Source: Candidatus Onthousia excrementipullorum
GTDB lineage: Bacteria; Bacillota_I; Bacilli_A; RF39; UBA660
Direction: 5' to 3'
Assembly (NCBI GenBank): GCA_018712385.1
Contig: DVHC01000055.1
Location: 1,448 to 65,447 of the forward strand
Length of the DNA stretch: 64,000 nt
The notes beneath the pieces are model-generated. The model did no database searches, was not told the DNA's origin, and worked only from the letters and a program-made list of their open reading frames with translations. Made by a program: the position numbers and the translations under genes. This document shows positions 49,631-56,318 of this stretch, one piece after another (position 1 is the stretch's first letter; each line of letters opens with the position of its first letter).

Positions 49631-51502
49631 ATGGTTAAAAATATAGGGAGAACTTTGAAAGAGAATAAGAAAAAGGTGGCTATTATTACTCTTGTAGTTC
49701 TTTTAATTATAATTATTGGTGTTTCATATGCTTGGCTTAGGACAACTTTAAAAGGAAAAAAGGATGTTCAAATTATAGTTGGTAATATAGATTTAGTCTT
49801 AAATGAAAAAAATGATGGTATACAACTTGTGAATGTTATTCCAACATATGATGATGATGGAAAAAGTGGTACACCTTATCAGTTTTCACTTGAGAATAAA
49901 AGTAATATAGGATTATATTATACACTTTCATTAGTAGATGATGAAGAAGCTTTATCTAATTGTCAAACAACAGATGGAGGAAGTTGTGAATTGTTAGATC
50001 CTAGAGATGTAAGATATGAACTTAAAATGGGAGATAGAACATTTACAGGAAGTCTTTCTGATTCATCAATTATAAGTTATGGAGTTATAGATTCTAAAGA
50101 AGTAATTGATGGAGAGTTAAAAGTTTGGTTAAATATAAATGCTACTAATGAAGCGATGGGTAAAGTATATTTAGGACAACTTAAAGTATTTGCAACACAA
50201 CAAGTAGATGACCCTGATTTTGAACAAGGAAATGATGCAGTTAATGCTCCAGATATGGATAGTAATATGATTGCAATTAAACATGATGGTTATAATTGGG
50301 TTAAAACGGATACTAGTAATGGTTGGTATAACTATGATATGGGTATATGGGCTAATGCTGTTACTGTAAAAAGTGATAAGTTAGCTGAATACACAAGTGC
50401 TCCAGTTGGAACAGAGATAAATATGGATGATGTAGAGACAATGTGGGTATGGATACCGAGATATAGTTATACAATAGCAAGTGAGAATGGAACAACTTAT
50501 TACGGAAAAAGAGGAGTGTATTTGAACAGTAATCCAACAGCAGCTTTACCAGGAGAGATTGATATTAAGTTTATAAGTAAAGATGAAAAAGATACAGGTA
50601 CTGCAAAATATCTTGCAACGGAAAAACCTAAAAATTGGTATACTCCAGATGCATTTACTTATGATGGAGAGGAACTTTCTGGAATTTGGGTAGGAAAGTT
50701 TGAGACAAGTAGTAGTAATCCAAGTGCAAGTAATGGCGGAGGAAATGTAACTAACCTTGATGCGATGATAAAACCAAATGTAACAAGTTGGAGAAATATA
50801 AATGTAAGTAATATTCATGCAGTAGCGACAAAAGTGAGTGCGGCTGGGAATAGATATGGATTTAGTACAAATATGAACTCACATTCTATGAAAAATAATG
50901 AATGGGCAGTAGTAAGTTATTTAAGTCAAAGTAAATATGGGAAATTAGGAAATGAGAACTATACAGGTGCAGAAAAGGAAGTATATCAAAATAAATCAGA
51001 TAGTTATATAACGGGATGTAGTTATGGAAGTCCAAGTAATGCAAATACAGATTATGGATGTCAATATACATATGATAATAATATAAGAACAGAAGAAGGA
51101 ATGACAGGAAAAGGAGTAGGAGCCAGTACAACGGGAACAATCTATGGTGTATATGATATGTCAGGAGGAGCTTGGGAGTATGTTATGGGAAACTATAACG
51201 ATATGGTAGCTTCAAGTGGATTTGAGAGTATGCCAGAAGCAAAGTATTATAACAAGTATACAAGTAATAATCCTAGTACAGCATGTAATGGAAGTGAATG
51301 TTTATCACATGGATTAAGTGAGACATCAGGATGGTATAATGATGCTAGGACGATGGTAAGTGAGGAGTACCCATGGTTGTTGCGCGGCGGTCTCTGTTAC
51401 AACACTTCTAGTGCGGGTGTTTTCGGCTTCGGTGCCTGGCTTCTTGGTAATGGTAGCAGCAGTGGCTCGTTCCGCCTCGTGATGAGCGTGACTAGTCCGT
51501 AA
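49631..51502 (+). CDS. DGR target protein: SipW-type signal/anchor, TasA/BsaA-like module, central domain, C-terminal C-type-lectin (FGE-sulfatase-like) fold carrying the VR
   Basis: N-terminal IIGVSYAWLRTTLKGKKDVQIIVGNIDLVLNEKNDGIQLVNVIPTYDDDG is collinear with the 4-7.6 kb paralogues. C-terminal GGAWEYVMGNY...WLLRGGLCYNTSSAGVFGFGAWLLGNGSSSGSFRLVMS is a typical CLec-type DGR VR. Confidence 0.85.
   Translation: MVKNIGRTLKENKKKVAIITLVVLLIIIIGVSYAWLRTTLKGKKDVQIIVGNIDLVLNEKNDGIQLVNVIPTYDDDGKSGTPYQFSLENKSNIGLYYTLSLVDDEEALSNCQTTDGGSCELLDPRDVRYELKMGDRTFTGSLSDSSIISYGVIDSKEVIDGELKVWLNINATNEAMGKVYLGQLKVFATQQVDDPDFEQGNDAVNAPDMDSNMIAIKHDGYNWVKTDTSNGWYNYDMGIWANAVTVKSDKLAEYTSAPVGTEINMDDVETMWVWIPRYSYTIASENGTTYYGKRGVYLNSNPTAALPGEIDIKFISKDEKDTGTAKYLATEKPKNWYTPDAFTYDGEELSGIWVGKFETSSSNPSASNGGGNVTNLDAMIKPNVTSWRNINVSNIHAVATKVSAAGNRYGFSTNMNSHSMKNNEWAVVSYLSQSKYGKLGNENYTGAEKEVYQNKSDSYITGCSYGSPSNANTDYGCQYTYDNNIRTEEGMTGKGVGASTTGTIYGVYDMSGGAWEYVMGNYNDMVASSGFESMPEAKYYNKYTSNNPSTACNGSECLSHGLSETSGWYNDARTMVSEEYPWLLRGGLCYNTSSAGVFGFGAWLLGNGSSSGSFRLVMSVTSP
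51374..51489 (+). repeat. DGR variable region (VR)
   Basis: Aligns without gaps to 53227-53342. In the 72-nt diversified core there are 16 differences. All 16 lie at TR adenines (16 of 26 adenines changed, 0 of 46 non-adenine positions). Local GC is far above the genome background. Confidence 0.92.
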
Positions 51503-51508
51503 GGACTA
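51493..51508 (+). promoter_or_regulatory. VR-proximal hairpin with 4-nt loop, overlapping the stop codon
   Basis: TAGTCC-GTAA-GGACTA. Present only after the VR, not after any TR-like cassette. Confidence 0.55.
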
Positions 51509-51583
51509 ACTCTTCTTCACTGAGCAAAATAAGATGGTAAAAATAGAGAAAGAAAGAATATTGTCGAATTATTCGTGATGATT

Positions 51584-51630
51584 AGCCTCGGGGCCCTCTT
51601 TTTTGCCCCGAGGCGATTTTCGTTTTTTTT
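51584..51630 (+). terminator. rho-independent terminator of the DGR target gene
   Basis: GCCTCGGGGC...GCCCCGAGGC 10-bp GC stem followed by a T-rich run. Confidence 0.85.
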
Positions 51631-51650
51631 TGATTATTTGTAAAGAAGTA

Positions 51651-51689
51651 GAAAAAAGTCCGTGGCTTTTCTTTTGATAAGCCACGGAC
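51651..51689 (-). terminator. terminator of the flavin reductase-rubredoxin gene
   Basis: AGTCCGTGGCT/AGCCACGGACT stem. An A-run on the + strand gives a T-run on the - strand. Confidence 0.75.
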
Positions 51690-54287: not shown

Positions 54288-54403
54288 CTGCGCGGCGGTA
54301 ACTATAATACTGGTGGTAATAATGCGGGCGTTTTCTATTTCAATACTAATAGTTGGAACATTGGTAATGCTAATGTTAATGGCTCGTTCCGCCTCGTGAT
54401 GAG
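54288..54403 (+). repeat. TR-like cassette F (core 112 nt)
   Basis: Reads LRGGNYNTGGNNAGVFYFNTNSWNIGNANVNGSFRLVM. Confidence 0.75.
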
Positions 54404-54643
54404 AGACTATGATATAAGAATTATTTAAGTTATTATAGATATAATAAAAAATAGTTATCATAGAAGTTTTTTCCAATTCACTTTGTGAATAAAAAATGAA
54501 GTAATGTATTTCTAGTTAGTAGGTTTACGAATACTAGAAAAATATAACTATAAGTATTTATTTACTTTATATAGATTGTTTTTCTTGATAGTTTGTGTTA
54601 ATTTTATGTTAGGGAAAGATTTTAAAAATTATATTATTTTAGA

Positions 54644-54750
54644 TTGGTGCGCGGCGGTAGTTATAATAATGCTAATGCGGGTGTTTTCAACTTTAATCAT
54701 GCTGCCCTTGGAAGTGGTGATGTCAATAACTCGTTCCGCCTCGTGATGAG
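54644..54750 (+). repeat. TR-like cassette G (core 100 nt), adjacent to avd
   Basis: Reads LVRGGSYNNANAGVFNFNHAALGSGDVNNSFRLVM. Its 3' spacer runs directly into the avd RBS. Confidence 0.75.
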
Positions 54751-54912
54751 GACTATGATATAAGAATTATTTAAGTTATTATTTATATAATAAAAAATAA
54801 ATATCATAGAAAGTTTTTTCCTTTTTGTATATACAAATAAAAAAACGAAGTAATTTTTTTCTAGTTAGTAGGAGATGAATACTAGAAAAATATAACATTT
54901 TGGAGGGCGACT

Positions 54913-55269
54913 ATGGATGATTTAGAAGGATTAGTTATCTATAAACAATATGTAGAGCTTATTTATTATACTCTTTCAATACTTTTAAAATATCCTAAGA
55001 GTGAAAGATTTTCTTTAGCTCAAGATATTAAAAATTCTACTTATGATGGTCTTAAAGATATTATTTATGCTCAGAAAGAATATGATAAGAAAAAAAGACT
55101 TTCATATTTAAATGAACTTGATGCCAATCTTAAAATTATTAAAGTGTTAATTAGAGTCTCTCATAAGAAAAAATATATTAATTCTAAAAATTATACGGCA
55201 TGGAGTAAGAAACTTACTAATATTTCTAATCTTAATGGAGGGTGGATTAGATCATGCCTCATACGATAA
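54913..55269 (+). CDS. avd: DGR accessory variability determinant (Avd, four-helix-bundle family)
   Basis: 118 aa, basic and helical. YKQYVELIYYTLSILLKYPKSERFSLAQDI resembles the bAvd / 23S-IVS four-helix-bundle family. Overlaps the RT start by 16 nt. Confidence 0.8.
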   Translation: MDDLEGLVIYKQYVELIYYTLSILLKYPKSERFSLAQDIKNSTYDGLKDIIYAQKEYDKKKRLSYLNELDANLKIIKVLIRVSHKKKYINSKNYTAWSKKLTNISNLNGGWIRSCLIR

Positions 55270-56318
55270 GAAATGAGTTTGATAAACATTTAACTATTGA
55301 AGCGTTGTTAGATGCTCATGAACGTGCTTGTAAGACTAAGAGATATTCTAGGGAAGTTTTAAAGTTTGAAATAGATTTAGAGACTAATATAGTTAATCTT
55401 TATAAGAAATTAAAAAATGGTACTTATAAAATGGGTAAATATAGGACTTTTAAAATATATGAACCTAAAGAAAGAGTTATTAGAGCCTTACCTTATGTTG
55501 ATAGAATTGTTCATCAGTGGTATATTCATGAATTTATTAAACCTTATGTTGTTCCAAGATTTATTAGTGATTCTTATGCATGTATAGAAGGAAAAGGTAC
55601 TCATAAAGCGGTTGATAAAGCTCAAGAGTATATGCAGAAGATGAAGAATAAATATGGTACTTATTATATTGTTAAATGTGATATAAAGGGATTCTTTTAT
55701 AATATAGATAAAGATGTTTTATATAATATTTTGAAGAAATTTATTAAAGATGAGAAACTCTTGGCTTTGACTTATGAGTTTATATATAATGATGGAGAAG
55801 ATGTAGGGCTTCCTATAGGAAATTATACTTCTCAGTTCTTTGCTAATATTTATATGAATGAACTTGATCATTATATTAAAGAACGACTTAAAGTTAAATA
55901 TTATGTAAGATATATGGATGATTTTATTATGTTTGTTAGGACTAAAGAAGATGCTAAGAAAGTTCTTTTTGATGTATCTAAATATGTTATGGAAGTGCTT
56001 CATTTAGAACTTAATAATAAGAGTAGATATTATCCTAATAAAATGGGACTTGACTTTTGTGGATTTAGAATATATGAGAGCTATAGATTGCTTAGGAAAA
56101 GAAGTATTAAAAAGATTAAGAGAAAAGTTAGAAGATGGAATATGCTATATGAAAGAGGACTTCTTGATTTAGATAAAACAGTACTTGAGTGGAATTCTTG
56201 GCTTGCTCATAGTTCTCATGGAAAGTGTTATAAATTACAGATGAATATATATAATAAAATAATCTTTAAAGAGTATTTAAAAAAGCCTTATGTAGAGACT
56301 TATGGAAGAATATTGTAG
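55254..56318 (+). CDS. DGR-type reverse transcriptase
   Basis: RT motifs IRALPYVDRIVHQ, DIKGFFYNI, LPIGNYTSQFFANIYMNELDH (DGR-typical SQxFxNxY), YVRYMDDF (YxDD), GLDFCGFRI. Confidence 0.92.
   Translation: MPHTIRNEFDKHLTIEALLDAHERACKTKRYSREVLKFEIDLETNIVNLYKKLKNGTYKMGKYRTFKIYEPKERVIRALPYVDRIVHQWYIHEFIKPYVVPRFISDSYACIEGKGTHKAVDKAQEYMQKMKNKYGTYYIVKCDIKGFFYNIDKDVLYNILKKFIKDEKLLALTYEFIYNDGEDVGLPIGNYTSQFFANIYMNELDHYIKERLKVKYYVRYMDDFIMFVRTKEDAKKVLFDVSKYVMEVLHLELNNKSRYYPNKMGLDFCGFRIYESYRLLRKRSIKKIKRKVRRWNMLYERGLLDLDKTVLEWNSWLAHSSHGKCYKLQMNIYNKIIFKEYLKKPYVETYGRIL

Follow-up and report, generated by a model that had tools for sequence, protein, structure and literature searches.

A candidate multi-template diversity-generating retroelement with a null template in the genome of Candidatus Onthousia excrementipullorum

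Introduction

To our knowledge, diversity-generating retroelements (DGRs) are thought to explore only the adenine-encoded positions of one template repeat (TR) of fixed length. What, then, is to be made of a DGR in which seven template-like cassettes stand in tandem beside a single variable region (VR)? This question is raised by a locus in a 64,000-nucleotide (nt) stretch of DNA from Candidatus Onthousia excrementipullorum (contig DVHC01000055.1), referred to below as the window. We consider, with a probability of about 0.72, that the locus is a multi-template DGR, in which one pair of reverse transcriptase (RT) and Avd works with a tandem library of template units, each complete in itself, and with a single VR. 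This reading is carried by the array of cassettes and its conservation across species, by the use of several cassettes by one VR, by differences between VR and cassettes that are confined to adenines, and by a conserved RNA structure. Positions are those in the window, except where another contig is named with them; homologous contigs carry labels of the form L0xx and homologous target proteins labels of the form P0xxx.

The variable region, its template and the associated genes

Our analyses have identified a real, complete and chromosomal (cellular) DGR in the window, which consists of the following core features.

51382–51483, + strand: variable region, with 5' flank GCGCGGCGGT, mutable core at 51392–51466 and 3' flank TCGTTCCGCCTCGTGAT; written from cassette U2 (see below)
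51464–51508, + strand: VR-type initiation of mutagenic homing (IMH) site GGCTCGTTCCGCCTCGTGATGAGCGTGACTA, then the hairpin TAGTCC-GTAA-GGACTA, whose loop contains the stop codon
54913–55269, + strand: avd accessory gene (PF22296, 3e-23; NF033474 equivalog, 84 bits with a cut-off of 80 bits)
55254–56318, + strand: DGR reverse transcriptase, an intact open reading frame (ORF) with the IGxxxSQ motif (IGNYTSQFFANIYMNELDH, IGNYTSQ) and YMDD

A preliminary description of this DNA, made from its letters, had reported that the VR (51374–51489, the last 38 codons of a 623-amino acid (aa) ORF) aligns without gaps to 53227–53342 and differs from it solely at template adenines. We aligned 51340–51520 with 53193–53373 without gaps and tallied the mismatches position by position. 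The homologous block of 113 nt contains 17 mismatches, all 17 of which fall on template adenines; 16 of them lie in the 75-nt core (51392–51466 aligned with 53245–53319) and the remaining one is at 51375. Within the core 16 of the 26 adenines are changed and none of the 49 other bases, and by the hypergeometric distribution such adenine-only mismatches have a probability of 6e-10 in the core and of 8e-13 in the whole block of 113 nt. Our recount agrees with the mismatch and adenine numbers reported earlier, the only quibble being the size of the core, which had been given as 72 nt. The other elements of that description are also borne out, viz. the identity of the flanks (GCGCGGCGGT and GGCTCGTTCCGCCTCGTGATGAG) between the VR and U2, the spike of GC content in the VR core (0.53, compared with 0.36 in the U2 template and 0.291 in the window), the ORF end ...SFRLVMSVTSP*, the Avd-like gene and DGR-type RT downstream, and the cellular nature of the element, whose neighbours are chromosomal genes (ClpP, a PRK-family (uridine-kinase-like) gene, rpsL, rpsG, fusA and tuf) and whose RT found no relatives in a scan of viral contigs.

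The tails of the VR and of the cassettes differ past GATGAG, the former reading GAGCGTGACTAGTCCGTAAGGACTA and the latter GAGAGACTATGATATAAG (putative IMH and IMH*, respectively), and the IMH tail specific to the VR is GAGCGTGACTA. The hairpin that follows (51493–51508) shows a compensatory change to TAGCCC/GGGCTA in L005, L006 and L016, and the sequence CCGCCTCGTGATGAG followed by this hairpin may serve as the signature of a VR. The 5' flank GCGCGGCGG (51382–51391) is moreover complementary to the 3' flank CCGCCTCGT (51470–51480), as is the case in every cassette, and the GC-rich stem that this pair could form might close each TR RNA and the VR; both flanks are invariant, so that covariation is uninformative for this stem.

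The avd gene overlaps the start of the RT gene by 16 nt, and searches of PDB sequences and profiles with Avd gave no match. NCBIfam has no DGR-specific RT model; in PDB the chain closest to the RT is 8ub7_A (E 1.3e-46 over residues 6–295; group II intron RTs reach 1e-19). This chain of 328 aa is deposited only as 'Reverse transcriptase', and we take it to be the DGR RT of the Bordetella phage. In L003 (12261–14756) and L020 (10001–10666) the RT ORF is broken past approximately residue 222 by an RVT_1 protein of 438 aa, an insertion that looks like a group II intron; the VRs of these two contigs remain adenine-diversified despite the interrupted ORF.

A tandem array of template cassettes

The flanks TCGTTCCGCCTCGTGAT and TGCGCGGCGGT are each present in 8 exact copies in the 64 kb, where 0 would be expected by chance. 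These copies correspond to the VR and to seven tandem cassettes (U0–U6), which are located at 52549–54747 between the VR and avd, recur with a period of about 350 nt and all have the A-free sequences GCGCGGCGGT and TCGTTCCGCCTCGTGAT as flanks. Hence, the stretch at 53227–53342, which the preliminary description had taken for the TR, is indeed the template of this VR, but it is only one cassette (U2) of a seven-unit array.

52549–52642, + strand: U0, null cassette; common flanks, a 67-nt T-rich and A-poor core (RGGGFLCN*) that is out of frame, and a VR-type IMH
52880–52984, + strand: U1; 78-nt core, 25 A, RGGGYNNTTNAGVFNFNATMNLGGSNSNNSFRLVM; source for P0015 and, in a variant form, for P0004, P0009 and L003
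53235–53336, + strand: U2; 75-nt core, 26 A; source of the VR in the window
53589–53693, + strand: U3; 78-nt core, 26 A; source for P0002 and P0012
53948–54055, + strand: U4; 81-nt core, 26 A; no derived VR seen
54290–54400, + strand: U5; 84-nt core, 26 A; source for P0014 and, in a variant form, for P0005, P0006 and L026
54649–54747, + strand: U6; 72-nt core, 20 A; source for L024, L025 and P0013 (14 A changes, 0 non-A changes)

The cassettes U1–U6 are in frame with their flanks, have cores of 72–84 nt with 20–26 adenines, mainly in AAY codons, and code for different variants of one segment, two examples of which are NYNNTSNAGVFNFNTWNLGNGNNNG (U2) and NYNTGGNNAGVFYFNTNSWNIGNANVNG (U5). Among these cassettes the VR of the window matches U2 only.

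One variable region written from different cassettes

The clearest example of a change of template is provided by contig L024, which was assembled from a different sample and shares 98.7% identity with the window along 5.4 kb. The cores of U1, U2, U3, U5 and U6 in its array are identical to those of the window and that of U4 differs by one base; however, its VR derives from U6, with 14 of 20 adenines and no other base changed over an equal length of 72 nt, whereas the VR of the window derives from U2. The base located 2 nt upstream of the 5' flank travels with the cassette, being part of TTGGT in U6 and L024 and of TTGTT in U2 and the window.

The same pattern is seen across the relatives of the target protein. 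Its cluster at 90% identity comprises 82 sequences, of which the 15 members listed are 558, 591, 592, 622, 623, 624 or 626 aa in length, and the full-length sizes are those predicted for VRs written from cassettes of different lengths. A codon-level test was applied to 14 coding alleles (13 members of the cluster and the near relative P0016), 13 of which are reachable from one cassette type with 0–2 codons unexplained by adenine-only changes (four alleles from type 1, three from type 2, two from type 3, three from type 5 and one from type 6); P0016 was left unassigned by this test. Two further target alleles are of the null type (RGGGFLCN* and RGGGFFV*), and one orthologous target gene bears VRs from at least six cassette types.

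When the VRs of 11 independent genomes with a coding VR were compared with the arrays of the same genomes, each VR matched exactly one of its own cassettes, with 7–18 adenine changes and 0–2 changes elsewhere (and a 3-nt gap in L005 and L013). The source cassette is the first, a middle or the last one of the array and, in L017, a unit located upstream of the target gene. The smallest number of adenine changes among the coding alleles is 7, and no unmutated coding allele was seen. A scan of metagenomes for the VR IMH and hairpin yielded 6 loci, too few for statistics, which include L030 (null VR) and L034 (coding VR, from cassette 2), two contigs of the same species with the same array. Comparisons between strains record past events of VR rewriting.

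The exclusive match of the VR in the window to U2 is what a canonical one-TR DGR would give, in which U2 alone works and the other units are inert duplications. The VRs of sister strains and species (L024 included), which derive from other cassettes with adenine-only differences, contradict this explanation, as do the flanks, which are 100% conserved while the cores diverge, and the arrays, which are kept across species with RT identities down to 78%; we regard its probability as negligible.

Arrays in related species

When species-representative genomes were scanned with the RT, 19 loci (56–96% identity over the matched segment) were identified in metagenome-assembled genomes of uncultured Bacilli or 'Tenericutes', including Candidatus Onthousia faecipullorum, Candidatus Onthousia faecavium and a circular chromosome of 1.52 Mb. 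Cassettes with the flanks described above adjoin the RT in 17 of these 19 loci; none were seen in two loci of 56% identity and in one truncated locus, and some contigs end inside the array. Complete arrays contain 3 cassettes in L005 and L006 and 5–6 in most loci, and larger ones are found in L016 (10 cassettes and a null cassette) and in L014 (at least 24 cassettes over 9 kb). Throughout, in the window and in its relatives, the coding cassettes are rich in AAY codons and contain 20–33 A, and both of their flanks are without adenines.

The possibility that selected VRs are archived into the array was also considered and rejected, as no array contains a pair of cassettes with adenine-biased differences; the cassettes of L014 differ at 13–39 positions, with no adenine bias.

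Anatomy of a template unit

Alignments of 61 inter-cassette spacers and of 43 post-cassette segments have revealed a strongly conserved block of 90 nt located 3' of each cassette, and conserved elements are also found on the 5' side.

53320–53500, + strand: structured RNA domain with four helices (one example; such a domain follows every cassette)
53158–53186 and equivalent positions, + strand: promoter-like TTGTTT-17-(TGg)TACTTT of the next cassette, from the spacer alignment
52416–52444, + strand: promoter-like TTGTTA-17-TACAAT of the U0 unit, with a 5' hairpin at 52452–52471; conserved in 11 species-level loci
52789–52811, + strand: intrinsic terminator closing the U0 unit; its stem covaries across species

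The helices of the RNA domain are an outer stem (CTATGATA/TATCATAG), the hairpin TTATTAT/ATAATAA, a small hairpin and the hairpin TTTCTAGT...ACTAGAAA. In the alignment 93% of the cells are paired, compared with 36–58% in controls with slid partners, and 14 pairs have changed on both sides, compared with 7.2 in shuffles, none of 500 of which reaches 14. The bRT-Avd complex of BPP-1 uses a spacer RNA for priming, and by analogy we infer that the post-cassette domain may be the counterpart of that RNA. The array gave no hit to any known RNA family in a scan with Rfam; the sole Rfam family at gathering score in the window is a T-box leader (RF00230, 108 bits) at 426–627 (+ strand).

On its 5' side each cassette has the conserved motif TTGnnn-17-(TGn)TAnnnT, with GGGA after it. 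A generic sigma-70 scan over the array performed no better than on shuffled sequences (31 hits versus 24 ± 5), and promoter-like sites were retained only where conservation across species backs them.

The null cassette

Almost all arrays begin with a null cassette (62–69 nt), the sequence of which also occurs as an allele of the VR. This null allele occupies the VR in L002, L011, L012, L016, L018 and L030, and among 134 target proteins sampled, 9 that represent at least eight lineages are of the null type. In L002 the VR is the U0 sequence with one A-to-T change, and this null VR represents a replacement and not a deletion, because the flavin-reductase gene that lies between VR and array (see below), U0 and the array all remain in place. 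An origin of the null allele by deletion or inversion was rejected on the same contig, which also keeps element D (described below) and the rest of the array.

It could be argued that such alleles, and the exchange of cassettes in general, are an artefact of assembly, in which reads of a hypervariable VR are mis-joined to cassettes of the array, as the flanks are shared and most of the contigs are from short-read metagenome assemblies. However, the VRs are adenine-mutated and not identical to the cassettes, the same alleles recur in independent samples, and the null allele is found in two assemblies that appear from their record names to be long-read, viz. L002 (a 'tig' contig) and L012 (a metaFlye circular chromosome of 1.52 Mb). 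We regard such an artefact as exceedingly improbable.

The null cassette is related in sequence to an element that lies downstream of the VR.

51525–51576, + strand: near-invariant block CAAAATAAGATGGTAAAAATAGAGAAAGAAAGAATATTGTCGAATTATTCGT 3' of the VR, conserved across species; contains element D (51540–51568)

Part of the U0 core (D', 52578–52606) is the reverse complement of D, with 26 of 29 positions complementary; D sits 55–85 nt downstream of the VR, and the D/D' relation is found in most species with a null cassette. D is invariant, and no compensatory changes between D and D' were found across species; the terminator stem at 51585–51614, which adjoins the invariant block, covaries freely. 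For a transcript with U0 in the VR, folding predicts a long stem around the IMH (z-score −5.7, compared with −1.3 for the coding allele).

The T-run of the null core (52559–52566) varies between T6, T7 and T8 (U0 of L003, L020 and L024; protein P0007), which shifts the frame; in its T8 form, U0 of L024 is open through to SFRLVMSVTTI*, with no stop.

Proposed mechanism and its alternatives

In the multi-template DGR that we propose, a unit would be made up of a TR cassette in A-free flanks, preceded by a promoter-like motif and a short leader and followed by a structured RNA domain, and RT/Avd would act in trans on the RNA from any unit. The common A-free flanks would supply the 3' homology for initiation and the 5' homology for integration, and because all cassettes share both with the VR, cDNA from any of them could home into the VR, whose own IMH and hairpin would be retained. 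Each such event would swap the binding-site segment of 72–84 nt, changing its length and framework, while randomising the adenine-encoded positions. Homing of U0 would truncate and frameshift the putatively lectin-like C-terminus of the target protein, a state that should be reversible because the IMH, the hairpin and the 5' flank stay intact. In 2008 Guo and colleagues (in Mol Cell) reportedly found that the Bordetella phage DGR carries heterologous TR tags into its VR, and homing is said there to need only the IMH and short 5' homology; on that basis, any cassette with the shared flanks should be competent. We infer that switching is probably mediated by the RT rather than by recombination, that each unit is probably transcribed separately and that the null state may be a selected OFF state.

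Several findings weigh against this interpretation. Per-unit transcription and RT-mediated switching are both deduced from sequence comparison. No VR derived from U4 was seen among the alleles compared. The preliminary description had considered diversification to be recent, and suggested that it might be ongoing, which is unsupported: the exact target protein of the window, VR included, recurs in 44 collection blocks and the exact RT in 76. Because of this recurrence the VR allele of the window is to be seen as stable and widely sampled, and turnover in its lineage appears not to be fast. The null alleles, furthermore, show about 5% change per adenine, compared with about 50% in the coding alleles (P < 1e-13 if the rate were 0.5), and this low level of change fits faithful, recombination-like transfer better than it fits classical mutagenic homing. 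Lastly, L031, L032 and L035 contain gene ends with IMH and hairpin that lack the conserved downstream block.

These last three contigs, which may represent remote or orphan targets, favour the explanation that each cassette serves its own remote VR in another target gene. DGRs with multiple targets are known (Wu et al., 2018), and in L032 the 13 kb that follow the gene end contain neither array nor RT; in the short contigs L031 and L035 the sequence continues downstream for only about 150 and 800 nt. The finding of only one VR in the 64-kb window, and of one per RT-centred locus in loci of up to 21 kb, speaks against remote targets, as does the occurrence of at least six cassette types in one orthologous target gene. 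We consider this explanation very unlikely.

The main rival to a multi-template DGR is gene conversion from silent cassettes combined with a DGR, whereby homologous recombination or replication template switching, acting over the short common flanks in the manner of pilE/pilS or vlsE, moves the cassettes and the RT then mutagenises the VR from its cognate cassette. The locus does contain one expression site and partial donor cassettes that replace its variable segment, the boundaries of the 5' tracts vary, and in most species the identity between U0 and the VR on the 3' side spans 31 nt. Gene conversion is also favoured by the null alleles, which are near-exact copies of U0: in the six compared with their own U0, 3 of 62 template adenines are changed. 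The same alleles also count against gene conversion, as all of their substitutions are on adenines and none of the approximately 330 other core bases is changed, save for one change in T-run length (the chance of such adenine specificity is about 0.004), and the null cassette of L012 has a TR-type tail and is nonetheless copied exactly into the VR. Gene conversion is also difficult to reconcile with the lack of any coding allele with fewer than 7 adenine changes, with the promoter-like motif and covarying RNA domain on every cassette, which silent donors would not need, and with flank homologies of 10–20 nt, which are very short for RecA. The low level of change in the null alleles may possibly be due to faithful recombination, to low-mutagenesis reverse transcription on U0 or to purifying selection on the null sequence. 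On balance we regard gene conversion as unlikely, and the multi-template DGR is the interpretation that is followed below.

An extension of the multi-template DGR, which we put forward only tentatively and think doubtful as a whole, is a three-level programme acting on one surface protein, consisting of scaffold choice, adenine mutagenesis and reversible OFF switching by a null template. Under this extension the null RNA would be a separately promoted and terminated small RNA whose core is antisense to D, and it could tether the template RNA/RT complex to its target; once installed, the null sequence could lock the IMH inside a stem of 29 bp. The near-faithful copying of the null cassette would point to a second, low-mutagenesis mode of retrohoming, and the library of scaffolds would be expandable, to at least 24 in one species.

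The target protein and the neighbourhood of the element

49631–51502, + strand: target gene, 623 aa; predicted N-terminal membrane anchor and beta-rich domain, and a putatively lectin-like C-terminal domain with the VR at its end

The family of the target protein counts 4045 homologues, and the C-terminal region of the protein contains the motifs GGAWEYV, WLLRGG and SFRLV. Its match to PF03781 is below threshold (E 0.0015; 18.7 bits with a cut-off of 23.3 bits), and recurs in 20 of 42 relatives; searches of PDB sequences and profiles with the target gave no match. An AlphaFold2 model based on a 42-sequence alignment contains a helix at residues 13–42 and strands at 55–190 and is too poor overall (mean pLDDT 39.5) to inform on the fold. 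These characteristics are consistent with a surface lectin-like binder with weak similarity to FGE-sulfatase/C-type-lectin-like proteins.

About 80 nt upstream of the target start, at 49501–49552, there is a tandem duplication of 26 nt in perfect register (AATTAATAGTAAATAAATTTTG(A/T)CAA, twice), with TTGACA in the first copy; a promoter or operator element may have been duplicated here. A gene for a flavin-reductase/rubredoxin fusion (51694–52353, − strand) lies between the VR and the array. It is missing in L005, L007, L011, L012 and L015–L017, where the distance from VR to array is about 450–650 nt, and has decayed in L024 and L025 to fragments of 76 and 40 aa. In L002, whose VR is null, an insertion sequence (DDE_Tnp_IS240 transposase; 12033–13463 of that contig) is located between the last cassette and avd. 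The RT gene is followed in the window (56328–57186, + strand) and in L026 by genes for a membrane protein of 125 aa with multiple passes and for a regulator of the HTH_3 type, in place of which thyX follows it in L002 and L003; this pair is probably not part of the element.

Significance

A library of templates would remove the limitation of a DGR to a single template, in that loop length and framework can change before hypermutation acts, so that the reachable repertoire is multiplied; it would provide a prokaryotic parallel to the choice of gene segments followed by hypermutation. The conserved stop-bearing template suggests that DGRs are also capable of phase variation. The locus would furthermore be evidence from nature that a single RT/Avd pair is able to work in trans on many template RNAs, for whose definition short flanks and a compact RNA domain would suffice; this is directly useful for the DGR-based tools of directed evolution that are under development. 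It also points to a blind spot of DGR-finding programs, by which loci with two or more TRs are discarded or merged. The hosts are uncultured Bacilli with small genomes from animal and human guts (Ca. Onthousia and relatives), for which a diversified, putative surface lectin is likely to be central to attachment to hosts or partners.

Comparison with known systems

We take the locus to be a probable architectural and functional variant of the DGR, viz. a template library with a null member. It shares with canonical DGRs (BPP-1 Mtd/bRT/Avd and the chromosomal Treponema TvpA type) an RT of the DGR clade, Avd and adenine-only differences between TR and VR; an A-free, GC-rich IMH that is common to TR and VR and diverges after GATGAG, with a hairpin 3' of the VR; the position of the VR at the C-terminus of a probable lectin-like domain; and a structured RNA 3' of the TR. 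Unlike canonical single-TR DGRs, it contains six coding templates and one null template in tandem for one VR, and the complete arrays of its relatives hold from 3 to at least 24 cassettes per RT. The length of the VR changes here (72–84 nt) with the length and framework of the cassette, which single-TR DGRs cannot achieve. Each cassette has a promoter-like motif and an RNA domain of its own, and a conserved stop-containing template is complementary to a conserved element 3' of the VR, neither of which is a property of canonical DGRs.

Multi-TR DGRs, with several TRs close to a single RT and with VRs to which two or more TRs correspond, appear in surveys (Yan et al., 2019), in which such cases are given as counts or set aside; unlike the present locus, they are reported without a tandem library, evidence for the rewriting of the same VR by alternative TRs or a null cassette. 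No description of tandem alternative TRs that feed one VR was found in full-text literature and in the DGR surveys (Schillinger et al., 2012; Wu et al., 2018; Yan et al., 2019; Roux et al., 2021), a search outside of which most subscription journals lie.

An organisational resemblance also exists to silent-cassette systems, viz. Neisseria pilE/pilS, Borrelia vlsE, Anaplasma msp2 and trypanosome VSG, which likewise combine one expression site with partial donors in conserved flanks, and in which the donors look promoterless, strains express different donors and OFF variants arise. Gene conversion in these systems is of the RecA type, and a reverse transcriptase takes no part in it. In contrast, the donors described here resemble templates of an RT, being rich in AAY codons, with a tail of the IMH* type, a structured RNA, and RT and Avd alongside, and the copies at the expression site are adenine-mutagenised.

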